From a virus (taxonomy: Duplodnaviria; Heunggongvirae; Uroviricota; Caudoviricetes): 64,000 bases of DNA. Of this stretch, positions 2,056 to 45,178 are shown piece after piece. The translations under genes were made by a program, and so were the position numbers. Each line of letters opens with the position of its first letter. Within the stretch, counting starts at the first letter, position 1. The stretch lies in the IMG/VR virus record IMGVR_UViG_2721755712_000001, one strand, 5' to 3'. Below the pieces are notes generated by a model. It made no database searches and was not told the DNA's origin. It saw only the letters and a program-made list of their open reading frames with translations.

Positions 2056-3396
2056 TTAGGTAACGTCTAAGATTCGCTCAATGAAGCGCATTTGTTCGAG
2101 GTTTTGTTTAACGCGAATGCTGATCCCTCCCTGCTGGTTACGTGAACCAGCAAAGTAGAGACGAGCCTCTCCTTTCGCTTCTTCTTCTTCTGTTTTGTTG
2201 ATCGTTATTACCAGGTCAGCAATACGTACTTTTTCGATGTTGTCGGCAGCGTGCATCATTGTGGCAACTTCTGACGCGCCACCTTCACGGTTTGTTTGCG
2301 ATGCTGTGATACCAGCAACGTTGTGTTTGTCATAAAGAGCACGTAAGTCGGTATAGATACTACGTATGTTGGCGCGATCATCACGAAGGTCATAACTGGC
2401 ACGCATCAAATCTGCATAGTCGACAACAACCATGTCAGGCACCATGCCATTGGCTTTCATGCTGTTAAGCATACGATCCAGATCTGCCGGTGACATACTT
2501 CCTGACGGACGCTCAACAACCCACAAACTACCAATCCCCTTCGTGGCTCCCAACTCTGCCAACTTACGATGAACCTCATCGCGCCGTTCCACCAGCTTGG
2601 ACATTTCTGTCTCCGACAATCTTGCATCAAAACGGTCGGATAAAATGGTGGTGTGAACCTCCAGCGAGAGATACAGAACATTGTAGCCAGCAAGCGTTGC
2701 GTTTATGGAAAACTCACCCATTGCGGTCGATTTACCGGATTTAGCGAACCCCATGAAGAGCACCATTTCACGCTTCGCCCAGCCTTTTTGGTACAGCAAC
2801 CTATCGAGCAGAGGGAGTCCAGTTGTAATGCTGTTTGGCACATACTCCTCTGAAGCCTCATATTCACGCGCTTTCAATCGCTCACTTGCGGAGGTGTAGT
2901 AGTCATAGATTCCGGTCGCTTCGTTCGATCCAATCTGCTGAACCTTGGCCATGATTGCCATCGCCCCCTGAAAGTCGCCCTTCTCTTTCAGTTCAGCAGC
3001 CTTAATCAGAGCATCATCAAACGCTACGCTTTTTGCGAAGGTTGATACCTGGTCAACCATGTACGAGGTATCAGACAATTTTTCTGCAAGGATGCGCTTA
3101 AACGCAGCAACAACATCGGCGAATAGTTCCTCACGGATAGTCTTATCGCGTTTCGCACGCTTAAGCATATCCAGAATCGCAGATGAAGAGGGCGCGCTCT
3201 TGTACATACGGTAATAGCCCGAAACCATATTAACCAATATGGCATTGGCCGCATTGGCAAATTGGCTAGGTACAACCAGATCTCCAGCACGAGTAAGAAA
3301 CTCGTGATCACGACAAAAATAGGCCGTCAATCTGTTCTGAAAATCTTCATCAAACTCTTCGGACAGCCCGCGTCCTGTATGGCAAAGTTCGGTCAT
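2056..3396 (-). CDS. DnaB-like replicative DNA helicase
   Basis: ATG at 3394-3396; Walker A GFAKSGKST; RecA-like C-terminal helicase architecture typical of DnaB/T7 gp4 helicase domains. Confidence 0.8.
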   Translation of the reverse strand: MTELCHTGRGLSEEFDEDFQNRLTAYFCRDHEFLTRAGDLVVPSQFANAANAILVNMVSGYYRMYKSAPSSSAILDMLKRAKRDKTIREELFADVVAAFKRILAEKLSDTSYMVDQVSTFAKSVAFDDALIKAAELKEKGDFQGAMAIMAKVQQIGSNEATGIYDYYTSASERLKAREYEASEEYVPNSITTGLPLLDRLLYQKGWAKREMVLFMGFAKSGKSTAMGEFSINATLAGYNVLYLSLEVHTTILSDRFDARLSETEMSKLVERRDEVHRKLAELGATKGIGSLWVVERPSGSMSPADLDRMLNSMKANGMVPDMVVVDYADLMRASYDLRDDRANIRSIYTDLRALYDKHNVAGITASQTNREGGASEVATMMHAADNIEKVRIADLVITINKTEEEEAKGEARLYFAGSRNQQGGISIRVKQNLEQMRFIERILDVT

Positions 3397-3660
3397 GTGC
3401 TTTCCTTTGTTTTTTAAACAAATTGTTTTCTAGTATTAGTTAATTAGATAGGGGATCAATAAACCGCCGTGCTTCTTCCAGTTCTTCTGGAAAGTGGGCG
3501 GAAATAAGGCGCTCTGGAACGATTTCCATTAGCCAGATAGCGGAGAAAATTGCGCGTATGCGCTTGCTGCGGGGGATGGTGCGTAAACGCTCCAGAATCC
3601 ACTCAAAATAGCTTTCCTGAATCGGGTTGAACTGCATGTCTCCCATATGCTTAAAGCTAA

Positions 3661-5728
<2,068 letters not shown>

Positions 5729-6255
5729 CCGTCGTGCAGCTGCGGAAAGAACGGTGGAGATAAAGTAGTCGTATGAGCAGCAATAGCGGTCAGCAAACTG
5801 GCGTGCTTTCCATAGAGACGTTTTATTGGCAGTCGACAACTCCTGATAAGGCAGGCGTTTTAACCCGGTGGTGAACGGAGCTGTTTCAAAGTGTTCGCGA
5901 CCGTGCGTCAGCATGATATTTGAGTACTGACGTTTGTATGCCTCCGTAAAAAGACAGGTGGCCATGAGAGGATGCATGTCGCGGTAATCAAACCACTTCG
6001 TCTCGAAGAGTTCAGCCTCATCTTTACAGCGCGACAAACCAATGTTTTCAGCAACCCACTTGTCCATAACAGCGGTATTCCACTCTGTCATGAAGTCGTA
6101 CTGGTTGTTGTCGATGGTATCGAAAAAGATTTGGCTCATGTGGCTCACCTGGTAGGTAGTTACTTACTTATCACGATGAGCGGATGATAGCGACTGGTGG
6201 CAGTTTTTGGAAGTGGAAACGGAAGGGAGTTGTTCTGGTGGTGTCTTTTAAAAGA

Positions 6256-6310
6256 CCTGCTTCCGTATATATTTAATAAGTTACTTATTATTTATATATA
6301 CAGAAGCAGG
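6256..6310. repeat. 55-bp AT-rich palindromic element, copy 1 (identical copy at 37562..37616)
   Basis: CCTGCTTCCGTATATATTTAATAAGTTACTTATTATTTATATATACAGAAGCAGG, identical at both sites; GC clamp arms CCTGCTTC/GAAGCAGG; centre TAAGTTACTTA. Confidence 0.85.
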
Positions 6311-6421: not shown

Positions 6422-7189
6422 ATGGACGATTTATCGGTATACGCGAGATCATTGGATAAGGCTAAATACTATGTTTACTGCCTCTATGATACAGAAGACA
6501 AGATGAAAAGACCGTTTTACATAGGAAAAGGCAAATCGACTCGTTGTCTCGATCACATCAAGTATCCCGATGACTCTCCCAAATCCATGCGGATCAAAGA
6601 ACTTTTGGCTAATAAAAAATTAGGCATAGATATTCTTCGTCATGGTATGGATGAAACCACAGCCAAACTTGTTGAGGCGACATGCATCGACCTTATGGGG
6701 GTCGGAGAGCTTACGAATAAGGTACGAGGAAGTGGTTCCATGATGGGCAGAATATCACTGGACGCCTACCATCACTTAGTGCTGCAAGAGGAAACTGAAA
6801 TTGCTCCTGAGCACGCCGGTCTTGCCTTCCTGCTAAACAGCACCTACAAGTCAGGAATGTCCGCTCTGGCATTATATGAAGCTACGCGTGGCGTATGGGC
6901 AAAGGTTCCAAGAGACGAGAATCTCAAATATGCCTACGCTACATATGGTGGGCTAATAATGGAAGTTTATCAGATTGAATGCTGGGTCAAAGCCGGTTCT
7001 CAGCAGTACTTTACAAGGGATATAGCTCTTGGCCCCGACACAAAACGTTATGAATTTGTTGGCAGAATAGCCGATGAGCATATTAGAAAACTGTATGTAG
7101 GCAAATTAATCAAGAAGCCACCAAGCTACGGTAGCCCTTTTGTGAAGGTTGGGGTGGTTAGGACTGAACATAGTGTTAGCGCGGCATAA
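6422..7189 (+). CDS. GIY-YIG domain nuclease (possible homing-endonuclease-like protein) with uncharacterised C-terminal domain
   Basis: N-terminus YYVYCLYD...PFYIGKGKSTRCLDH fits the GIY-YIG motif; only plus-strand gene in a minus-strand neighbourhood; bounded by the 55-bp palindrome and a bidirectional terminator. Confidence 0.65.
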   Translation: MDDLSVYARSLDKAKYYVYCLYDTEDKMKRPFYIGKGKSTRCLDHIKYPDDSPKSMRIKELLANKKLGIDILRHGMDETTAKLVEATCIDLMGVGELTNKVRGSGSMMGRISLDAYHHLVLQEETEIAPEHAGLAFLLNSTYKSGMSALALYEATRGVWAKVPRDENLKYAYATYGGLIMEVYQIECWVKAGSQQYFTRDIALGPDTKRYEFVGRIADEHIRKLYVGKLIKKPPSYGSPFVKVGVVRTEHSVSAA

Positions 7190-7241: not shown

Positions 7242-7601
7242 TTAACCTTTCTTCATCAACTCTCGTTTGATTTCATCGGTACGCATCGTGACATCGGCAG
7301 CGGTGATCGCCTCATTCAATTTCACGATGTCCTCGATTTCCTGCGGTGACTTCTCTGCCAGATGGAAAATGGCTGCTCGAATCACGTCAGAACGAGTGAA
7401 CTTCTCGAAGCGAGGGATGAACTTCATCATCTCCAGCAGTTCGAAGTATTCGTCCTCCAGTGACATTGTGCGGCTTTTAATTTTCTCTTTGCCACGAGTC
7501 GGGCGTCCCTGTGGTCTGACTGGTTGGCGCAAAGGAGTTGTGTTCTTAGCCGGTGCATCAGGCTCTTTGCGCTTTGCTAGGTCACCCATTTTCATGGACA
7601 T
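7242..7601 (-). CDS. small partition-associated protein (ParG/ParB-like centromere-binding candidate)
   Basis: 119 aa, basic N-terminus; start ATG overlaps parA stop (ATGA coupling); GGAGG RBS. Confidence 0.45.
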   Translation of the reverse strand: MSMKMGDLAKRKEPDAPAKNTTPLRQPVRPQGRPTRGKEKIKSRTMSLEDEYFELLEMMKFIPRFEKFTRSDVIRAAIFHLAEKSPQEIEDIVKLNEAITAADVTMRTDEIKRELMKKG

Positions 7602-8269
7602 TATTCTTCTTCCTCCAGACTCAACAGATAATCTACAAATTCTTCAAACTCGGCTTCCGCCTTTTTGTCGCGCTCGCTACCGGTCATTTCAAAGATAGAA
7701 CGACCAGACTCTTCCGCATCATCATAGACGTTGCGGTTATATAGATTGACTGGCGCAGACTCGATTCCAAACGTCTCAACAATCTCTTTAGCCGCCAGAA
7801 TGCGAGACACTTGTGATGGCAAAGCCGGGCACTGGTTCATGACCGCGCGGACCTTCACTTTATCGTTTACATTGCGAACATTGTCGATAATAGGATCGAT
7901 GTCACGTAAAGATTTCAAATCACGACGCTTAGGACGCAGCGGGATAATGATAACGTCAGCCATCAGCATCGCTTGTCGCTGAATTTCGGAGTCGAAGCCA
8001 CCAGCATCTACCACTACAAACTCAGCTCTACCCTGAAGCGATTTTAGGTGCTTAATGATGTCATCCTGAACGTATGCAAAAGGAATCAGCTCAAGGTCTT
8101 CGTTCTGTCGACGGTCTTCACACCAGCTCGTTGTCGTGCGCTGAATATCTATATCGGTAATATAAACCTTCTTCTTCTTTTTGACTTTCAGGCAAACGGC
8201 AATTTGCTGGGCAACGGTGGATTTGCCAGGCCCGCCCTTTGTGCCGCCAACCACAAAGATCTTGGTCAT
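7601..8269 (-). CDS. parA: ParA/ParF-type partition ATPase
   Basis: Deviant Walker A GGTKGGPGKST near N-terminus; 222 aa, size of type Ib ParA. Confidence 0.85.
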   Translation of the reverse strand: MTKIFVVGGTKGGPGKSTVAQQIAVCLKVKKKKKVYITDIDIQRTTTSWCEDRRQNEDLELIPFAYVQDDIIKHLKSLQGRAEFVVVDAGGFDSEIQRQAMLMADVIIIPLRPKRRDLKSLRDIDPIIDNVRNVNDKVKVRAVMNQCPALPSQVSRILAAKEIVETFGIESAPVNLYNRNVYDDAEESGRSIFEMTGSERDKKAEAEFEEFVDYLLSLEEEE

Positions 8270-35540: not shown

Positions 35541-35560
35541 TAGATAATTACTTACCTATC
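35541..35560 (-). promoter_or_regulatory. class II motif (minus-strand GATAGGTAAGTAATTATCTA) overlapping terL stop, 15 nt upstream of portal start
   Basis: Shares the core ATAGGTAAGTAATTA with the fibre-gene upstream site. Confidence 0.45.
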
Positions 35561-36812
35561 GAGAACCACCAAGAATAACACGGTTTTTGACTGGATACCT
35601 ACGATGTACTGGATAGCCCAATGCGTCTGCACTATGCTCAATGCCACCTGTCTTATCCATATCTCGTGTTCCAGGCTTGTAGATGACTTTTTCCAGTGAA
35701 TCAATCAAATGCTTGCACTTCGGATCGATATACAGCCGGATATCTCCAGATGCGGTCATCAGCATTCGGTTAACAGCATTAACACGATCCGCAATTGGCG
35801 GGTGCTTTTTCGAATAATCGACACGTAAGAATCCCTTCTCTTTGAATATGTCGACGTCAGACTCCCCGCGAGCATGTTGGCGATAAGCACCTGCCGGATC
35901 TGGAAATACCGTTATCTGTGATTTCCAGCGCCAGAAGCGTCTCTCAAGCTCATCACAAACCTCTGCCGTGTTAGAGGAAAAGAGCACCAATTCATCAATT
36001 GCCCATAGCTCACCATTTGGCTGAGGTTGCAAAATTACGGAAGACATCGGGTCAATGTTGAAGTCCTGCCCTACCCATATAGGCAACCGAGGGTTGAACT
36101 GAAGCGGTTTTACATGCACGTTACGATCAAACGGGTAGTAAACGCGCCCGGACATGTTCTCAAAGCTGGCCAGGTACTCCTGAGCGAACGATTTGGGGTC
36201 CATATCGTTCTTAGCAGCTTCAATTTCCGCCGTAGGTACAAACGGAGAATCGGCAGTTACAAACTGCCAGCTCTTCCACTGTCCCTTTCTTTGCAGCTCT
36301 ACGTTCTGGCCTATAGTCCACAGTTTGTGAAATTCCGAGAAGCCTTTTGGCGTACCAATGATCAGTGCACCGCCGCGTGTCGATGAAAGAGTAGGTCGTA
36401 ACACCTTGTACCAGGTGTCAGCCTTCATATCCTGAAATTCATCAAGCACTACAAAATGCAACGCTACGCCGCGCAGAGTGTCAGGCTTATCAGCACCTTT
36501 GAGGGCGATCTCCGAACCGTTCTTCAACACGATTGTCATCGTGGTGTCGTTCTTTTTCCTAACCCACTTACGAGGCAGAACTTCCTGTAGATCGTCCCAC
36601 AAAATCTGGCGAGCCATTTGGTAAGTAGGAGCGACATACCAGACCCTTTGCTTTTTTTCCTTTGCCGCCGCACGAATAATAGTGGAGATCGACAACCGGG
36701 ATTTTCCCCAGCGTCGACCAGCACAAACAACTTTAAATCGATGCGGAGACTGGAAGACTTTCATCTGTCCAGAATGCAGTTGCACAAGACTGAGCGAGGA
36801 CGGGATTGCCAT
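35556..36812 (-). CDS. terminase large subunit
   Basis: 418 aa; Walker A-like VVCAGRRWGKS near N-terminus, acidic nuclease-like C-terminal half; start overlaps terS stop. Confidence 0.8.
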   Translation of the reverse strand: MAIPSSLSLVQLHSGQMKVFQSPHRFKVVCAGRRWGKSRLSISTIIRAAAKEKKQRVWYVAPTYQMARQILWDDLQEVLPRKWVRKKNDTTMTIVLKNGSEIALKGADKPDTLRGVALHFVVLDEFQDMKADTWYKVLRPTLSSTRGGALIIGTPKGFSEFHKLWTIGQNVELQRKGQWKSWQFVTADSPFVPTAEIEAAKNDMDPKSFAQEYLASFENMSGRVYYPFDRNVHVKPLQFNPRLPIWVGQDFNIDPMSSVILQPQPNGELWAIDELVLFSSNTAEVCDELERRFWRWKSQITVFPDPAGAYRQHARGESDVDIFKEKGFLRVDYSKKHPPIADRVNAVNRMLMTASGDIRLYIDPKCKHLIDSLEKVIYKPGTRDMDKTGGIEHSADALGYPVHRRYPVKNRVILGGSR

Positions 36813-37444
36813 TATTCGTCCTCCTCTTCACTTCCATCATCTGTCGCATCAAATTCGCTTAGAGCTTCTTCTTCCAACGTCTCAAGCAATTCGTCATCGA
36901 TGATTTCAGGCTCGTCGTCTTCCTGACGTAATTTCGCCACCTGGGAAGGCGTAAGCTCACCAAATACCAGGTTCGGAATTTCTTCCTCGTCATTTTCCGC
37001 ATGATCCATGCCCAATGCTTTGGACGAAACTTCAAAGCATTTTGCAAGGGTATTACTGGCTCTCTGTAAGCTCTTGAGAGAATCCTCAATCGCCCCTAAA
37101 GGCTTACCCTCACGTTTGGCCGTAGTGACTTCGACCATCACCATCTGCCCCAACGCATACGCCCAGCCGTCATAACGTGTACGACGTTCTTCTATCTTTT
37201 CCGCACGGGCTTTAGCGCGAAGCTCTGCGTCAGATTTAAGAGACTCACGAACCATCTTCCCAACAGAGTCCGCACCTTTCTCTAATCCTCGCTTTTTGAA
37301 ATGTCTGGAGAGTGTTTCACGACGAATGCCGTACTCTTCCTCCAGCTTTGAGAGTGTATATTCGCCTGACGTCCATTTGGCTTCAGCTTCGGCCCACTCC
37401 GCTGGTGTCAGGCGAGTTTTTACCTCGTCTTTTTCGACCGTCAT
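36812..37444 (-). CDS. terminase small subunit (putative)
   Basis: 210 aa, HTH-like N-terminus, very acidic C-terminal tail, coupled to terL. Confidence 0.55.
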   Translation of the reverse strand: MTVEKDEVKTRLTPAEWAEAEAKWTSGEYTLSKLEEEYGIRRETLSRHFKKRGLEKGADSVGKMVRESLKSDAELRAKARAEKIEERRTRYDGWAYALGQMVMVEVTTAKREGKPLGAIEDSLKSLQRASNTLAKCFEVSSKALGMDHAENDEEEIPNLVFGELTPSQVAKLRQEDDEPEIIDDELLETLEEEALSEFDATDDGSEEEDE

Positions 37445-37454
37445 AGATCCCTCT

Positions 37455-37480
37455 AAAACACACAGAGCGCGTCCATGCGC
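37455..37480 (-). terminator. hairpin (AGAGCGC-ATGGAC-GCGCUCU then GUGUGUUUU) between promoter/operator region and terS start
   Basis: 7-bp GC-rich stem followed by a U-rich tract immediately upstream of the terS RBS (AGAGGGA); candidate attenuator/antitermination target. Confidence 0.4.
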
Positions 37481-37535
37481 TCTAAAACAACTTGTTTACT
37501 GAATCTGCTAACCAACTTGTTTTCTGGGGTGTTTA
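37481..37535 (-). promoter_or_regulatory. two adjacent class I operator-like palindromes upstream of terS
   Basis: AAAACAACTTGTTTAC and AACCAACTTGTTTTCTGG, followed by GGGGTGTTTAATTAG (minus strand CTAATTAAACACCCC), matching the class I leader consensus. Confidence 0.45.
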
Positions 37536-37561: not shown

Positions 37562-37616
37562 CCTGCTTCCGTATATATTTAATAAGTTACTTATTATTTA
37601 TATATACAGAAGCAGG
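37562..37616. repeat. 55-bp AT-rich palindromic element, copy 2 (identical to 6256..6310)
   Basis: Identical over 55 bp to copy 1, with similar imperfect flanks; lies between the wHTH gene and the terS regulatory region. Confidence 0.85.
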
Positions 37617-37640: not shown

Positions 37641-37907
37641 TTACATCACCAGTAACTTCGCTTTGGCTCGACCTAAAGTGGTTAACCCAAGAGTTCGGCG
37701 GTGATAGCGATTGTCACTGCGTTGGCGCGTATGCCCTTTCTCCACCAGCCCCTTTTTTATCAGAGCGCGAATTGAGAACTGGATACTTTGCTTGGTTGTC
37801 TTGTACGGCAAAACTTCAAGCAATTCGTCCAGATCAAGTAAATGACCTCGCTCATAACCGAGATTGAGCGTTTTGATGATGTCCTTTTGTTTATCGGTTA
37901 ACGTCAT
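37641..37907 (-). CDS. small winged-helix-like DNA-binding protein (putative regulator), last gene of the ParB/ATPase cassette
   Basis: 88 aa, basic C-terminus; AAGGA RBS 9 nt after the stop of the upstream gene. Confidence 0.4.
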   Translation of the reverse strand: MTLTDKQKDIIKTLNLGYERGHLLDLDELLEVLPYKTTKQSIQFSIRALIKKGLVEKGHTRQRSDNRYHRRTLGLTTLGRAKAKLLVM

Positions 37908-37916
37908 GGCAAATCC

Positions 37917-38807
37917 TTATGCCGGTAAAGCAATTTCTAACGGTTTATCCAAAGGTTGTTTGTCGAATGCCAGCAGTGGCAGCGTGTCAGGCAGCCGACG
38001 ACCAAAGTCAGGGTTTCGGTACACACCATACAACGGAGACGTAAAGCTCAGGTTGTGAATGTCCTTGAGCAGCTTCACAATGCTGGCCTCGTCCACCAGA
38101 CTGTCGGCAATGTCCTGAATCGTCGTGCCACGATTCCGCCCAGCTTTTGCCAGGGAACTGTTCTTGTGGTAGTCCGCTACCAGATCACGCAGTGCACGGC
38201 GACGACGAGACTCGCTCATTGCGAACAACTCTTTGACGATCGCCTCGTTATCACCCGGGTCGGAACGGAAATGGCGCTGGAATACACGCAGTGCACTTTC
38301 ATAGCTCTTCGGTCGCTCAGGGCGGATGAACTTAAACCCTGCTTTCATGGCGAAGGGATTGTATTTGCTCATCGAGGACTGGATCTCAATGATTGGCCGG
38401 TCATGCATCCTGCTAACCAGGTTAATCATTCGATAAGAGACGCCTACGCCACGATACTGAGTATCCACAACTGAGCGACTGATCACCGCAAAGTTGTTAT
38501 TCACGTACCGACCCCAGTACTGGTTAGCCACGGTGGTATTAGTGGTTGGTTTCAACTTAGGAAACATGCGGTGGCGAGGTGCCAACAGTAGTTTCGGGTA
38601 AGCCATAACCACGACGCCCACCAGACGGTCATCAAGTTCGCAGCGATAGTAAGTTGGCGCGAAAGGTTTGCCGTCTGTTTTGTAGTGAAGCGACTTAAGA
38701 GCGTGCCAGTCCTCTACAGTTCCCTTTGTGACAGTCATTCGCTCCAGAAAGTCCAGATGACGCGGAAACTCTTCAGGGCGGTAGCGTTTAATGATGATGT
38801 CCGTCAT
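37917..38807 (-). CDS. GNAT-fold acetyltransferase-like protein
   Basis: 296 aa; motif VVDTQYRGVGVSYRMINLV resembles GNAT motif A; start overlaps the ATPase stop (ATGA). Confidence 0.45.
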   Translation of the reverse strand: MTDIIIKRYRPEEFPRHLDFLERMTVTKGTVEDWHALKSLHYKTDGKPFAPTYYRCELDDRLVGVVVMAYPKLLLAPRHRMFPKLKPTTNTTVANQYWGRYVNNNFAVISRSVVDTQYRGVGVSYRMINLVSRMHDRPIIEIQSSMSKYNPFAMKAGFKFIRPERPKSYESALRVFQRHFRSDPGDNEAIVKELFAMSESRRRRALRDLVADYHKNSSLAKAGRNRGTTIQDIADSLVDEASIVKLLKDIHNLSFTSPLYGVYRNPDFGRRLPDTLPLLAFDKQPLDKPLEIALPA

Positions 38808-39469
38808 AAATGAACCTCATCATGACTACCATTGTGATATTCCACCTTCACGCGTTCTTTGTAGTGCTTGGTGATCTGCATATCCGGGCGCAGCGCGTTC
38901 TTCAGGTCTTCGTGAGTCGTCGCCACCATTACCGTCGCACCAACCTTTCGAGCGGCACGCTGGAGGTTAGATGCCACAACCTGAGCGGTTACACGGTCTA
39001 GAACAGCCCCGAACTCGTCAGCAGCCCACACTTTAGCGCCTGACTCAATCAGTTTGGCAATCTTGAGACGATATTTCTGGCCGTCTGACATTTCAGAAGG
39101 CTTGCGAACAAACAGATATGCATCGTTCAGACCAGCCATAGATAACAACCCAAGCGCATCACTGGTCGTTTTGCCCAACTGATCGATGACGTTAACCTCA
39201 TTATCGAAGGTAAAATCATCGATGGAGGCTACAGACAGCCCTTCATCCTTCATCTGTCGTTGCAACTCGCGCAGCACAACGGATTTGCCGGATCCGGATT
39301 GGCCGGTGATGTACACCACATCGCCCTGCTTCACTTCCAGCTCCAGATTGTCGTAAAGCGTCCACTCTTTTTCGTCCAGGCCAAGCCCGAACGACTCAGC
39401 GATTTCCAACGTGCGCGTGGTTTTATTTACGCGTGTCTGAAACGATACGTTGATGATGTATTTGCTCAT
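38804..39469 (-). CDS. ABC-type ATPase (soluble, no membrane domain)
   Basis: Walker A GQSGSGKS, signature-like MSDGQKYRL, Walker B VWAADEF, H-loop-like ATTHE; 221 aa; start overlaps upstream stop. Confidence 0.65.
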   Translation of the reverse strand: MSKYIINVSFQTRVNKTTRTLEIAESFGLGLDEKEWTLYDNLELEVKQGDVVYITGQSGSGKSVVLRELQRQMKDEGLSVASIDDFTFDNEVNVIDQLGKTTSDALGLLSMAGLNDAYLFVRKPSEMSDGQKYRLKIAKLIESGAKVWAADEFGAVLDRVTAQVVASNLQRAARKVGATVMVATTHEDLKNALRPDMQITKHYKERVKVEYHNGSHDEVHL

Positions 39470-40134
39470 GCAGCCATCTCCCCGGAAGAGATCTTCTCCG
39501 CATATGCCACAAATGCGTCTACCCCGCTTTCTCCTGTCATTTCTTCCATGTGGGCAAGCAAATCACCAACAACAATGGCAGAGCCAGCAGGGAGCGTTTT
39601 AAAGCCCAATACGTCGACAACACGTACTTCTTCCGCTGCAACTTCACGACTGATCTCGGTGTGTTCATCCTTCTGTCGTTTAGTTTCTTCGCCAAGATCG
39701 ATAACTAGCGAGTCGGTGTCCATTTCTTCTGTCATACTGCCAACGAGAACATTCAACTCACGCTCTTCAAAGCCGAAAACCTCGATATCGTCCAGAACAA
39801 GCGACTCAAGCTCTTTCTGTAGCTTAATTGCATCGTAATCAATGCTGGCTAGTCGGTTATCTTCAAGGCGCTTCGCACGAACCTCGTCATCACTGAGATC
39901 ATCGCGAACAATAACCGGTACGCGCTCAAGTCCAGCAAAAATTGCAGCCTCACGGCGGCCGTGGCCAGTAATAATTACGTCGTTCTTATCGACCGTAATT
40001 GGCTGGTCAAATCCGCGCTTTTTAATGGCTGCGGCCAGATCTCGGATCTGCTGTTCATCATGCTTTTTGGCATTCATCTCATAGGGAATAAGATCTGCCG
40101 GGTCGCGATATACGATTTCAAACTTTTTGGTCAT
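39466..40134 (-). CDS. ParB-like nuclease domain protein (paralogue 2)
   Basis: ParB/Srx-type motif IITGHGRREAA; acidic C-terminal half; TAATG overlap with upstream gene. Confidence 0.6.
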   Translation of the reverse strand: MTKKFEIVYRDPADLIPYEMNAKKHDEQQIRDLAAAIKKRGFDQPITVDKNDVIITGHGRREAAIFAGLERVPVIVRDDLSDDEVRAKRLEDNRLASIDYDAIKLQKELESLVLDDIEVFGFEERELNVLVGSMTEEMDTDSLVIDLGEETKRQKDEHTEISREVAAEEVRVVDVLGFKTLPAGSAIVVGDLLAHMEEMTGESGVDAFVAYAEKISSGEMAA

Positions 40135-40814
40135 TACATACGCTCCTTGTAGTAGTCGACCAGCCACACCAGAGCCTCACCAGCGTTCTCCATTTCATTA
40201 CCGGTGTTAATAGCCTGCTCTTTGATGATGTTTTTTATGGTTTCTGCAACGCGATCTGACGCATCGAAGGTTACTTTGAAGCGCATGGTCTGATGTTCCG
40301 CACCGACACGTTCGGTTTTCTCTCGTTTGTCGGTATCGACAGGCTCGTCACCGCCACGAGACAACGCCTCCAGTGCTTCAAGGTCGATTGCAGCCTCTTT
40401 TGCTAAAACCATCGAGATTTCGTCGTCATACGGGGCGATTTCAGACAGTTGATAGTCAAGTTCTGACTGAATTTCTTCAATGAAGCGTTGCAATGCGATT
40501 TGGTCGTCTTCACCGTATCGCTCGTTGTCCACCAGTGACATCTGTTTAGCTACGACATCGCTAATTTTGCCCACAGAAAGCACCGGAACCGTTGAAATTC
40601 CTTGCTCAATAGCAGCACGCCAGCGATGTTCGCCGCCGAGGATTTCAAAAAATCCATCTTCAAGTTCACGAGCCAAAATTGGCTTAAAAAAGCCCAATTT
40701 TTCGATAGAACCTTTCAGTTTTTCAAAATTCTGCGCACCAACCGAATTGGTGTTCCAGGTATTCGGGCGAAGGTTGGCAACATCAACCTGCAAAATCGTG
40801 ATTTTTACATCCAT
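40134..40814 (-). CDS. ParB-like nuclease domain protein (paralogue 1)
   Basis: ParB-box-like ILGGEHRWRAA; first gene of a five-gene coupled cassette; ATG at 40812-40814 preferred over the GTG at 40832. Confidence 0.6.
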   Translation of the reverse strand: MDVKITILQVDVANLRPNTWNTNSVGAQNFEKLKGSIEKLGFFKPILARELEDGFFEILGGEHRWRAAIEQGISTVPVLSVGKISDVVAKQMSLVDNERYGEDDQIALQRFIEEIQSELDYQLSEIAPYDDEISMVLAKEAAIDLEALEALSRGGDEPVDTDKREKTERVGAEHQTMRFKVTFDASDRVAETIKNIIKEQAINTGNEMENAGEALVWLVDYYKERM

Positions 40815-40833
40815 TTTATTGCTACAATCCACT

Positions 40834-40859
40834 AAGTAATCACTTACTTATTATAATAG
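40834..40859. promoter_or_regulatory. divergent promoter region: class II palindrome TAAGTAA-TCAC-TTACTTA plus TATAAT hexamers
   Basis: Between the ParB-like cassette (minus) and the SF2 helicase gene (plus); TATAAT readable on both strands at 40850-40857. Confidence 0.45.
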
Positions 40860-40896
40860 CCAAATAACATACAAAAGGCACTAAGGAAAGAGGTTT

Positions 40897-42456
40897 ATGA
40901 CTGTTCGGATTGTATCTAACGCAGTAAATGCGCTTATTTCTGGCGCAGATGACAAGGTAAAGCAAATGGTGCAACAGATGTTGAGCTACGAAGTCGAGAC
41001 TGGCGACTGGAAGGGCACAAGCACGATGTTCAACTGGAGTAAAAACTCGTTCCCTGCTGGCTTTGCCAAGCCTGTAGCGGCGAACTTGAACAAGGCGGGC
41101 ATCAAATGTGTTCATATCCGCAAAGACAAAGCCCCGGCGCTTGGTAAACCAAATCCGGCGGTTAACCCATTCCCATACAATCCTGATTATGCGTATCAGG
41201 ATCAGACTGTGGAAACACTGGTTCGAGAGGGAATGATGATTGCGCAGATCGCTACTGGTGGCGGGAAATCTAATGTTGCCTGCAAAGCAGCTGCACGTAT
41301 CGGTCGAATGACATTATTTTTAACAACCCGCTCTGTTCTGATGTTTCAAATGGCCGAAAACTTCCAGAGATCCATCGACTACCGCGCCAAAAATGGCGAA
41401 CCGTGGTTAAAAGACCAAAAGGTTGGAGTCATTGGCTCGGGTGAGTTCCAGGTATCACGACATATCAACGTCGCTACAGTTCAAACTCTTGCAAGTTTCC
41501 TCGAAGAACCACCACGCGATGCAACACCAGATAAGAAAAGCTACCACCTCAAACGTCGGGACTTGGTGAAACGCTTCCTTTCAAGTGTGTCTCTGCTTAT
41601 TCTGGAAGAGGCGCATGAGTCTTCAGGTTCTAATTTCTATGACATTGCCAGATTATGTGTGAACGCAGACTATCGTCTGGCACTTACGGCCACGCCGTTC
41701 ATGAAGGATTCTACAGAAGCCAACATGCGTCTGATGGCTGTGGCTGGGCGAATTGAAATCAAAGTCACAGAAAAGTACCTGATTGATCGAGGCATTCTGG
41801 CAAAACCGTACTTCCTTTATCATAAAGTTGCCTACAAGCCAGACGAGGCCAGAATCAAGGCCGAACTTGCCAACAAACACCTCAATTTTAGAGTTGGTAT
41901 GAGCACCGCCTACCAAAAGGCTTATCAGTTGGGGATCGTGTATAATTTGGGACGTAACGAGGCCATTGTGCGCGAAGCATTGCTCTATAAGCAACATTCT
42001 CTCAATTGCATGACTCTGGTTCGTCTTAAACGCCACGGGCAAATCCTGATGGAAATGATGAAAGAGTCCGGCCTTAGAGTTGACTTCATTTATGGGGAAT
42101 CGAACCAGTCGACAAGGCAAGCAAAGCTGAACAGTTTAGCGTCTGGTGAAATAGATGTTTTAATAGGCTCGACTATTCTGGATGTTGGTGTTGATGTGCC
42201 AAGCGTTGGTGCGGTCATTCTTGCTGGTGGTGGGAAAGCAGAAGTTGAAATGAGACAGCGTGTCGGTCGTGGCTTACGAGCCAAGAAGAATCAGGCAAAC
42301 GTGTGTTTTATCACTGATTTCATTGACATTAGCAACAAATACCTGTTGTCTCACTCTTATGAGCGAAAACACATCATCGACACCACACCTGGCTTTGCAG
42401 AAGGTGTATTGCCTATTGATGGCGCATTCGATTTTGGAGTTCTGAAACGAGATTAG
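40897..42456 (+). CDS. superfamily 2 DEAD/DEAH-box DNA helicase (UvsW-like)
   Basis: Walker A ATGGGKS, DEAH-like LILEEAH, motif III LTATP, C-terminal helicase-domain motifs (GSTILDVGVDVP, RQRVGRGLR). Confidence 0.75.
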   Translation: MTVRIVSNAVNALISGADDKVKQMVQQMLSYEVETGDWKGTSTMFNWSKNSFPAGFAKPVAANLNKAGIKCVHIRKDKAPALGKPNPAVNPFPYNPDYAYQDQTVETLVREGMMIAQIATGGGKSNVACKAAARIGRMTLFLTTRSVLMFQMAENFQRSIDYRAKNGEPWLKDQKVGVIGSGEFQVSRHINVATVQTLASFLEEPPRDATPDKKSYHLKRRDLVKRFLSSVSLLILEEAHESSGSNFYDIARLCVNADYRLALTATPFMKDSTEANMRLMAVAGRIEIKVTEKYLIDRGILAKPYFLYHKVAYKPDEARIKAELANKHLNFRVGMSTAYQKAYQLGIVYNLGRNEAIVREALLYKQHSLNCMTLVRLKRHGQILMEMMKESGLRVDFIYGESNQSTRQAKLNSLASGEIDVLIGSTILDVGVDVPSVGAVILAGGGKAEVEMRQRVGRGLRAKKNQANVCFITDFIDISNKYLLSHSYERKHIIDTTPGFAEGVLPIDGAFDFGVLKRD

Positions 42457-44656: not shown

Positions 44657-45178
44657 ATGGTTAAAGACATCACCTACGGCATACCGGCTGAAGTCTGGCC
44701 GCGAGACTACGAACATGCTGAAAACATACTTATGTTCTGGCGGAAGAACAACATTCCTGTAAGAGTCACGCTTGAAGACGGTCAGGTGTTTTGCATGTAC
44801 GTTCAGGGGACAATGCCTTCCCGCAATAAGCTAGATTTATGCCCGCTTCCATATGATAAAGAAAATCGTATAAGACTCCCACTTGAGCGCATTAGCACAA
44901 TTGAATCAGGTGTAATCGATGGCATTGCTCGCGAGTTCAAAGGTAGGCTAACAATACATCCAGACTATGTTGACAATCAGCCATCACGCCGTGACTTTTT
45001 TGCGATATGTCGCAAGGCTTATCAAAACGACCAATCTATAAGGGTCTACATGACAGACGGTCGTGAAATAGAAGGGGTGTCAAGAGGCGTTGATGCTTGC
45101 CAGGTCACTCTTAAGTTAGAAGACGGCAGAAAAATACTTGTTTTCTTCGATTGGGTTGAACGAATCCTTCCATTTTAA
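44657..45178 (+). CDS. hypothetical protein (internal duplication of a ~45-aa segment)
   Basis: 173 aa; two related segments (VRVTLEDGQVFCMYVQG / VTLKLEDGRKILVFFDW). Confidence 0.4.
   Translation: MVKDITYGIPAEVWPRDYEHAENILMFWRKNNIPVRVTLEDGQVFCMYVQGTMPSRNKLDLCPLPYDKENRIRLPLERISTIESGVIDGIAREFKGRLTIHPDYVDNQPSRRDFFAICRKAYQNDQSIRVYMTDGREIEGVSRGVDACQVTLKLEDGRKILVFFDWVERILPF

Follow-up and report, generated by a model that had tools for sequence, protein, structure and literature searches.

The GNAT-fold protein Mom of phage Mu, a late gene product, modifies adenine in phage DNA as an anti-restriction measure and, to our knowledge, works without ParB or ABC partners. TmcA/NAT10 is a GNAT coupled to a nucleoside triphosphatase (NTPase) that acetylates cytidine in RNA. 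A ParB-like protein, DndB, and an ABC ATPase, DndD, take part in DNA modification in the DndBCDE system (PMC10853773), a ParB/Srx N-domain is found in phage DNA methyltransferases (phrog_498; PDLC03229; PF02195 + PF01555), and the prophage methyltransferase M.EcoGII is silent except in phage development (PMC7736820). An uncharacterised 'general function' bin, COG2401, carries the description 'MK0520, ABC-type ATPase fused to a predicted acetyltransferase domain'. Here we describe a cassette of five minus-strand open reading frames (ORFs) at positions 37641-40832 of a 64,000-nucleotide (nt) stretch, the window, of IMG/VR virus record IMGVR_UViG_2721755712_000001 (Caudoviricetes). The ORFs, all of them where the initial annotation of this DNA had placed them, encode two ParB-like proteins (ParB1 and ParB2), an ABC ATPase, a GNAT-fold protein and a small winged-helix protein. 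We judge it probable (about 0.8) that ParB, ABC and GNAT form a single machine directed at DNA at the packaging stage, and that it is not a partition system, a transporter or a catalogued defence system.

Judged by its sequence, the replicon is an SSU5-like phage-plasmid. Over the 3.2-kb cassette region, identity is 99.4% with Escherichia phage Cyrano (an SSU5-type phage-plasmid), 98-99% with further phage-plasmids of E. coli, 85% with Salmonella phage SSU5 and ~81% with Klebsiella relatives. Four of the proteins belong over their full length to PHROG families (723, 930, 886 and 900), and the ATPase matches part of phrog_293. These families are labeled 'ParB-like partition protein', 'ABC transporter', 'ABC transporter ATP-binding subunit' and 'unknown'. 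The initial annotation could name no module for the cassette; in fact the DNA is a near-exact copy of known SSU5-type phages, with genes already catalogued. The sequence and the gene families are thus known, while the ParB-ABC-GNAT system appears unrecognised. Full-text literature searches found neither a paper describing the module nor an experiment on it; the ABC ATPase classification of Krishnan et al. 2020, which those searches did not cover, might name the ABC-GNAT family.

Conservation and fusion of the ParB, ABC and GNAT modules

Gene order was checked by script in related loci of the SSU5/nickie group. A divergent helicase gene followed by ParB1, ParB2, ABC, GNAT, winged-helix, terS, terL and portal genes was the order in 88 of 88 loci; the shorter patterns among them were truncated loci, or loci whose winged-helix or terS gene fell under the detection threshold. 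Order is also kept around GNAT homologues of only ~43-47% identity, from an Ectothiorhodospira genome, a 3.3-Mb metagenomic contig and a Tara ocean contig; these have 0-3 small inserts between ABC and GNAT and retain the gap before terS. The same order is found in phages of 106-122 kb, namely Pseudomonas nickie, Rhizobium RHEph10 and B1VFA, Stenotrophomonas ANB28 and Xanthomonas JGB6. None of the five has a plasmid record, all being phage deposits, and some cassette copies lie in integrated proviruses. The proposal that the five genes share a function is borne out to this extent, that they form one conserved unit co-occurring widely outside this genome, in the 88 loci.

A first scan of viral contigs with the GNAT protein yielded only near-identical SSU5-type loci, and the wider diversity was reached through alignments of fused proteins. 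A GNAT-family profile matched 960 of 1.84 billion representative proteins. Many of the distant matches were proteins of ~450-500 aa with an N-terminal ABC_tran domain followed by the GNAT part. Homology to the cassette extends to both halves of these fusions: the ABC halves matched the window ATPase with phmmer E values of 1e-55 to 1e-63, and the GNAT protein matched the same ORFs at 1e-7 to 1e-18. Four representatives of ~680 aa (P0222, P0223, P0195 and P0227) go further, combining a ParB-like domain, a Zn ribbon, ABC and GNAT in one chain. Their N-domains align to the cassette ParBs with an hhalign probability of 99.2% (E 7.5e-20). Because the same three modules exist elsewhere as a single polypeptide, ParB1/ParB2, ABC and GNAT probably act together, and we regard the triple fusions as the strongest computational evidence for one machine. 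Other fusion partners were DNA-related (TFIIB repeat, intein, PolB, Zn ribbon). Among P0164, P0175, P0204 and P0154, one has a LAGLIDADG intein inside the ABC domain, two have the family placed after a family-B DNA polymerase, and one has a TFIIB-repeat end. The ~420-aa N-terminal extensions of P0189, P0203 and P0231 gave weak matches only (Pox_A32, E 0.017; KAP) and were not used as evidence.

In the window the genes are closely chained, as direct reading of the junctions confirmed. ParB1 and ParB2 meet at 'cgtatgTAATGacc', where the stop and start codons overlap by 1 nt (TAATG). The ParB2/ABC junction 'gctgcATGAgc' is a 4-nt overlap with a Shine-Dalgarno-like GGGGAG 9 nt upstream, the ABC/GNAT junction 'catttATGAcg' is another 4-nt overlap with a GAGG element upstream, and a 9-nt gap, 'ggatttgcc', separates GNAT from the winged-helix gene. 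These junctions indicate translational coupling of the genes.

The cassette tolerates insertions at the ABC/GNAT and ParB2/ABC junctions. Small variable genes sit inside the cassette of distant relatives, at 6961-7999 in L002, at 3336-3755 and 4393-4895 in L277, and at 2979-3407 and 4026-4945 in L279. Their place is between ABC and GNAT (Phage_gp49_66, a RyR-domain protein and DUF2829 are examples), and RHEph10 and B1VFA also have one small inserted gene between ParB2 and ABC.

Linkage to terL in other lineages

In the window the cassette is followed by a terS-like gene (36812-37444, minus strand; phrog_867), which has an N-terminal helix-turn-helix (HTH)-like segment and overlaps terL (35556-36812, minus strand; Pfam Terminase_6N + Terminase_6C, and PHROG terL families). 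The portal gene comes after terL. Placement 'directly upstream of terS' was an overstatement, since a structured gap of 196 nt intervenes; the proximity to the terminase genes is nonetheless meaningful, recurring in very distant viruses, and all lineages examined show the module linked to these packaging genes.

Searching viral contigs with the fused family found 80, whose closest genome matches were Bathyarchaeia and Nitrososphaeria; we term these archaeal-type. In 62 of the 80, terL is directly upstream of the fused gene on the same strand, mostly overlapping it or within 100 nt, and in 4 more it is downstream. A small ORF of terS size also precedes terL in archaeal-type contigs. Some contig ends were close by: 23 of the 80 (in the series L162-L241) stop no more than 100 nt from the ABC-GNAT gene, and in another group (L257-L269) several start exactly at the ParB gene. 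From these positions the module seems to abut a physical or assembly terminus of those genomes.

A second set of 35 contigs was found with the triple fusion, and terL was present in 26 of them. Many contigs of this set read ParB, ABC, a short GNAT that passes Pfam thresholds, then terL. Further arrangements came from other lineages. Planctomycete genome contigs have ABC, GNAT, ParB, a small ORF and terL. Leptospira phage LE4 has ParB, an ABC-GNAT fusion, small genes, terL and portal. Gordonia phage AnClar has ParB at the start of its genome record, then HNH, an ABC-GNAT fusion, a methyltransferase-like gene and terminase. Streptococcus prophages such as Javan420 have ParB and then an ABC ATPase a few genes before terL, with no GNAT; the ATPase is 27% identical to that of the window (E 9e-13). 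In Javan420 (L280) the pair lies at 3504-4678, and the same pair occurs in 11 other Streptococcus records. It is labeled there 'DNA modification methylase' and 'ABC iron siderophore transporter, fused permease and ATPase', and both labels look wrong.

In five contigs of the second set, the ParB N-domain is instead fused to an N6_N4 DNA methyltransferase (PF01555). Over the best aligned segment these N-domains are ~50% identical to that of the triple fusion, and in contig L254 the ParB-methyltransferase fusion is directly upstream of terL. Such ParB domains, many of them annotated as methylases, turned up by tblastn in 301 of 50,697 phage records; in many of the 301 the domain lies in the first or last kilobase, next to terminase genes. 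From these arrangements, it looks as if one slot can hold either ParB-[methyltransferase] or ParB-[ABC-GNAT].

Although the parts are arranged differently around terL from one lineage to the next, they stay adjacent to it, a pattern that speaks for selection maintaining the linkage and against synteny kept by descent. With the linkage recurring in about seven lineages that differ in gene order, the weight that had been given to the position beside the terminase genes appears justified.

The cassette proteins

ParB1 (40134-40814, minus strand) is 226 aa long from the ATG used in the Cyrano annotation, with an alternative GTG start at 40832. Its paralogue ParB2 (39466-40134, minus strand) starts with ATG and has 222 aa. 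Both carry the ParB/Srx N-domain, matching Pfam ParB_N with E values of 3.4e-13 (ParB1) and 1.5e-8 (ParB2), and ParB1 matches phrog_723 over its full length (E 3e-79). Aligned with orthologues from distant loci (alignment A5), ParB1 shows the ParB/Srx N-domain joined by an acidic linker to a small C-terminal domain that is conserved. In the ParB2 model made with AlphaFold (predicted local distance difference test score 79.8), the N-domain is similarly followed by linker helices and a small C-terminal domain, which is conserved too. The structures closest to it were pNOB8 ParB-N (11.5), PadC (11.2), KorB (10.8) and sulfiredoxin (9.8). After its own family, the nearest relatives of ParB2 in PHROG and PADLOC were the N-domains of phage DNA methyltransferases (phrog_498, E 5e-32; PADLOC MTase_II PDLC03229, E 2.7e-17).

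The motifs quoted in the initial annotation for the ParBs and the ATPase (ILGGEHRWRAA, ITGHGRREAA, GQSGSGKS and MSDGQKYRL) are all present in the translations. Calling the first two 'GERRxR-type' holds only loosely. The canonical cytidine triphosphate (CTP) motif is GERRxRA; ParB1 has GGEHRWRAA, thus GEHRWR at the core, with GG(E/H/Q)HR in orthologues, and ParB2 has GHGRREAA, with GHGRRE. Binding of a nucleoside triphosphate (NTP) by the cassette ParBs is possible, though the motif is non-canonical. Neither ParB has a Pfam match to HTH_ParB (PF17762), the central parS-binding HTH, which genuine ParBs in loci L242 and L247 do match (E 1e-8 to 2e-10). With non-canonical motifs and no ParB HTH domain, action of these proteins as nickases or CTP switches, as had been suggested, is not established.

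The ABC-type ATPase (38804-39469, minus strand; 221 aa) is soluble, a bare nucleotide-binding domain matching Pfam ABC_tran (PF00005) with E 5.8e-13. Its Walker A (GQSGSGKS), signature (MSDGQKYRL), Walker B (AADEF) and H-loop (TTHED) motifs are kept in alignment A3, and its PDB matches were to ABC nucleotide-binding domains only. No permease domain or partner was found in the cassette or in any syntenic locus.

The fourth protein (37917-38807, minus strand; 296 aa) had been called GNAT-like, and its modeled structure confirms the GNAT fold; what is catalogued as an 'ATP-binding subunit' is really a GNAT. In the model a helical region of ~90 aa (~residues 165-255) lies between an N-terminal GNAT core and C-terminal strands. 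Motif A is R119-G-V-G122 and motif B is N150..F152..A156-G157. Across the 43 sequences of alignment A1, R119, G122, F152, A156 and G157 are invariant and N150 is kept in at least 90%; H41, Y42, E141 and Y260 are likewise invariant. R337 and G340 are invariant in the alignment of the fused ABC-GNAT family. Because motif A, motif B and the invariant His, Tyr and Glu residues are kept, the GNAT looks catalytically intact. The window protein scores 14.4 bits, below the Pfam gathering score of 23.6, and searches of the PDB by sequence, with the single sequence and with a profile, returned only noise. The short GNAT homologue in L258 passes Pfam (Acetyltransf_7, 37.1 against a threshold of 27).

The small winged-helix protein (37641-37907, minus strand; 88 aa) matches phrog_900 over its full length (E 2e-45), and its position and sequence are kept throughout the SSU5/nickie/RHEph10 group (alignment A9, with 8 distant orthologues). 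The fold assignment made for it earlier is weakly supported, by a match of the family profile to the MarR-type ST1710 (E 1.4e-3) and of the protein to LexA_DNA_bind (E 0.07), with weak Lrs14/Sta1 matches besides. We take it weakly as MarR-like, a candidate regulator or DNA-site adaptor.

Cis elements around the cassette

Between the cassette and terS lies a near-perfect palindrome of 55 bp (37562-37616), with GC-rich arms and an AT-rich centre, CCTGCTTCTGTATATAT...ATATATACGGAAGCAGG. Visual inspection and folding revealed it (RNA fold -37.1 kcal/mol, z -7.2), an inverted-repeat search having missed it because mismatches broke the seeds. A second, identical copy lies 31 kb away at ~6256-6310, between an ORF at 5672-6148 (minus strand) and a GIY-YIG gene at 6422-7189 (plus strand). 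A GC-clamped, AT-centred palindrome of different sequence occupies the same position in L002, L003, L004, nickie, RHEph10 and B1VFA.

Following the palindrome is a direct repeat, AAACAAGTTG, read from the sequence at 37513-37522 and 37488-37497 on the minus strand, which may be a promoter, activator or pac element. A terminator scan then identified a GC-rich hairpin with a T-run (37455-37484, minus strand; fold -13 kcal/mol, z -2.8), ending ~15 nt before the ribosome-binding site of terS; comparable hairpins with T-runs precede terS in L002, L004 and nickie. Since this hairpin is terminator-like, a transcript reaching terS must read through it, by simple read-through or by antitermination. The adjacent winged-helix gene is a candidate for the factor. 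Synteny places both the winged-helix protein and the structured gap next to terS in one conserved block with the ParB-ABC-GNAT unit.

On the other side of the cassette, the gap between ParB1 and the divergent helicase contains an inverted repeat read from the sequence, TAAGTAA-GTGA-TTACTTA (40833-40850, minus strand). It has in common with the palindrome centre the 11-mer ATAATAAGTAA, which occurs exactly three times (40833-40854, 37587-37597 and 6281-6291) and twice more with one mismatch, making 5 occurrences against 1.09 expected. TAAGTAA was also found in the gaps upstream of terS in 5 of 9 diverse relatives. The ATAATAAGTAA/TAAGTAA repeat is possibly a shared operator or loading site. The initial annotation had given the cassette its own divergent promoter; that call was drawn from gene orientation, and a sigma-70 scan of the 82-nt divergent gap (40815-40896) gave no site.

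Other genes in the window

The divergent gene beside ParB1 (40897-42456, plus strand) encodes a superfamily 2 (SF2) helicase of the UvsW/ResIII type, with Pfam matches to ResIII, DEAD and Helicase_C; it is called 'UvsW helicase' in the Cyrano annotation. It neighbors the cassette by synteny within the SSU5/nickie group only, and no helicase was found beside the module in the other lineages. Two distant relatives, L002 (1108-1569) and L003 (2695-3183), have a dCMP deaminase gene a few genes past their divergent helicase, and in L002 a radical-SAM gene is nearby.

A ParA (7601-8269), with MipZ/AAA_31/ParA matches, lies 30 kb from the cassette. Of the 'ParA pair' described at 7242-8269, ParA itself is borne out, and the partner is a small ORF of 119 aa (7242-7601) with no Pfam match. 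These two genes are the candidate for the actual partition system. Adjoining them is the GIY-YIG nuclease gene (6422-7189, plus strand), which is LEM-3-like. An IS21-family element occupies 3861-5662, with istA (rve integrase core + HTH, 3861-4883) and istB (IstB_IS21, E 8e-112; 4880-5662). At 44657-45178 is a full-length FljA-type 'repressor of phase-1 flagellin' (PF03614, E 1e-80); by homology, such a repressor on a phage-plasmid could alter flagellar phase or motility of the host.

Function of the cassette

The swap of ParB-methyltransferase into the same slot, taken with the apparently intact GNAT, favors DNA as the target and modification as the output. We therefore favor, at somewhat less than even odds, packaging-coupled acyl modification of phage DNA as an anti-restriction measure, for which Mom, TmcA and M.EcoGII offer precedents. 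In this scheme the ParB paralogues would settle on phage DNA, the GC-clamped, AT-centred palindrome beside terS being the probable site, and would recruit the ABC ATPase. ATP-driven dimerisation would then clamp the GNAT onto DNA, much as TmcA presents its base, and the GNAT would move an acyl group from acyl-CoA to the DNA as replicated DNA passes to the terminase. Only DNA bound for the capsid would be marked and hence shielded from host restriction, a logic shared with the ParB-methyltransferase fusions that occupy this slot in other viruses. Alternatively, the acceptor could be a DNA-bound protein instead of DNA. More tentative is the broader form of the proposal, in which the ParB-ABC-GNAT unit would be an ancient packaging component of bacterial and archaeal viruses, transferring acyl groups in an ATP-dependent manner to DNA or to chromatin proteins just as DNA enters the terminase. 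It would imply a packaging-coupled epigenetic marking machine with no characterised counterpart and, if DNA is the acceptor, a new class of DNA base modification; we regard this as possible but doubtful.

Several points weigh against a DNA-modifying machine of this kind. Most archaeal-type loci have ABC-GNAT beside terL with no detectable ParB, ParB alone adjoins terS in Vibrio X29 and RcSwan, and Streptococcus has ParB and ABC without GNAT. The last two kinds of lineage suggest that the conserved core may be a packaging function, with the modifiers as add-ons. Loci within a lineage are related, such that independent support amounts to about seven lineages and the counts given above are not independent; and the module may lie near terL in part because it heads a late operon, not through physical coupling. 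The GNAT is no more similar to Mom than to generic GNATs. A ribbon-helix-helix suspected in the ParB C-termini found no support in a profile search against the PDB, which leaves the C-domain unassigned. The palindrome and repeats are predicted elements, candidate binding or loading sites for the DNA-binding proteins of the cassette. Modification of SSU5-type virion DNA is a prediction, and DNA is a candidate acyl acceptor.

The main rival explanation, only somewhat less probable than DNA modification, is that the cassette is a packaging accessory. Its ParBs would recognise or nick DNA at the packaging start, in the position held by HNH endonucleases next to terS in cos phages, while ABC would remodel or clamp the concatemer. 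The GNAT would acetylate a protein, either a subunit of the terminase or, for instance, a nucleoid protein (HU or H-NS; Alba or histones in archaea), to clear or regulate DNA going into the motor. The tight adjacency to terL in some seven lineages despite differing gene order comports with this, as do the ParB-only versions right before terS in Vibrio X29 and RcSwan, the AnClar ParB at the start of the genome record beside an HNH gene, and the retention by streptococcal phages of ParB and ABC with no modifying enzyme. The contigs ending within 100 nt of ABC-GNAT, and those beginning at ParB, would likewise suggest a terminus. However, a terS-like and terL pair is already present, with a terS-sized ORF in the archaeal-type contigs too; the exchange with methyltransferases is easier to understand as DNA marking; nuclease activity of these ParB domains is only putative; and we know of no precedent for an acetyltransferase in packaging. 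An unlikely explanation is a late-gene switch, in which the ParB-like proteins, as NTP-dependent clamps in the manner of VirB, BisD or KorB, load with the winged-helix protein at the palindrome and drive transcription through the hairpin into the terS/structural operon, ABC-GNAT serving as loader or modulator. It would account for the terminator-like hairpin kept before terS in distant relatives, which requires read-through, for the winged-helix gene just upstream, an arrangement like that of lambda Q or RinA (PMC3152322), and for the presence of ATAATAAGTAA both upstream of the cassette and in the palindrome. One archaeal relative fuses ABC-GNAT to a TFIIB repeat, and ParB-like clamps that use CTP and switch genes on or off have been documented (PMC12409273, PMC10770331, PMC11790492). 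But canonical GERRxR and HTH_ParB are absent, linkage to terL is kept in archaeal viruses and Gram-positive phages with different transcription control, and the intact GNAT, the ABC ATPase and the fusion of some ParB domains to methyltransferases would go unexplained.

Still less likely is that the cassette is an accessory moron near the terminase, for defence, anti-defence or superinfection exclusion, for example an early-injected anti-restriction function. ParB/Srx proteins and ABC ATPases are common in conflict systems such as Dnd, GmrSD and PARIS (PMC10853773, PMC12839542), the cassette probably has its own divergent promoter region, and, lying beside a probable pac end, it could enter a new cell early. 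Yet it is a core block in all 88 loci rather than a variable one, with no system-level match in PADLOC and no effector nuclease or toxin. The databases themselves imply partition or maintenance by two ParBs next to an unrelated ABC transporter subunit, through the GenBank/PHROG labels 'ParB-like partition protein', 'ABC transporter' and 'ABC transporter ATP-binding subunit', and Pfeifer et al. (PMC7969092) counted the duplicated ParBs of a related phage-plasmid group, AB, among the partition genes. We rejected both halves of this explanation and give it a very small chance. HTH_ParB is missing, and ParA (7601-8269) is not adjacent; moreover the cassette occurs in phage-only deposits and integrated proviruses, which rules out a plasmid-partition role and agrees with the earlier view that this is not a partition system. 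Against a role in transport or auxiliary metabolism, no permease is present, the supposed 'ATP-binding subunit' is a GNAT, and ABC and GNAT are found fused to each other and to ParB. A DNA-directed ParB-ABC-GNAT machine acting at packaging stays our preferred explanation.

Implications

Should DNA acylation prove correct, it would be a new chemistry for phage DNA modification, bearing on anti-restriction, host range in therapy and sequencing artefacts, and would supply an ATP-gated DNA-modifying enzyme of possible biotechnological use. If the cassette is instead a packaging factor, a ParB fold, an ABC ATPase and an acetyltransferase would be unexpected additions to a machine that is taken to be well understood, across both prokaryotic domains. 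SSU5 and Cyrano infect Salmonella and E. coli, tractable hosts in which the function is directly answerable. For annotation, the PHROG families and phage records that we examined label these genes wrongly or misleadingly ('partition protein', 'ABC transporter', 'ABC iron siderophore transporter', 'DNA modification methylase'), and the cassette ParBs are unsuitable as plasmid-partition markers in surveys of phage-plasmids.

Comparison with known systems

Assignment to a catalogued system was tried and rejected. PADLOC, NCBIfam and Pfam gave generic domain matches only, in agreement with the initial annotation that no characterised pathway applies, and no full-length match was found to a known Dnd/Dpd/Ssp system or a terminase accessory. 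For known defence systems, PADLOC returned generic ATPase and ParB-N matches and nothing at system level; its weak matches included DndF (E 2e-3), the one Dnd model to match, and, on the helicase, DpdF (E 4e-4). The enzymes defining Dnd, Dpd and Ssp (DndA/C/E, the DpdA TGT and SspA-D) are absent from the neighborhood. We also rejected the idea that the cassette stands in for the small terminase, because a terS-like gene (36812-37444) is present in its own right and overlaps terL.

Among partial likenesses, DndBCDE pairs a ParB-like protein with an ABC ATPase in DNA modification, as here, but DndD is SMC-like with a coiled coil, whereas the cassette ATPase is a bare nucleotide-binding domain. 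The HNH endonuclease genes that adjoin terS in cos phages resemble the cassette ParBs in being small nuclease-fold genes at a genome end. They differ in fold, the nuclease role of ParB domains is only putative, and the SSU5-type cassette has no HNH gene. With Mom the likeness is no greater than for generic GNATs, and there is no detectable sequence homology. TmcA/NAT10 offers a parallel in mechanism, in that an NTPase is physically tied to a GNAT whose target is a nucleic acid.

Closer comparisons are with the ParB-methyltransferases and COG2401. The phage ParB-DNA methyltransferases share a homologous ParB/Srx N-domain, and in L254 one of them fills the same slot; by contrast, the cassette ParB is a separate protein, present twice and with a small C-domain, and its partners are ABC and GNAT rather than an S-adenosylmethionine-dependent methyltransferase. 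COG2401 has the same fused architecture as the ABC-GNAT proteins collected here, and its label has been used by JGI and Cyrano annotators for the cassette GNAT and its relatives. In the cassette the two halves are instead separate and translationally coupled, and the links to ParB and to the terminase genes go beyond the COG2401 description.

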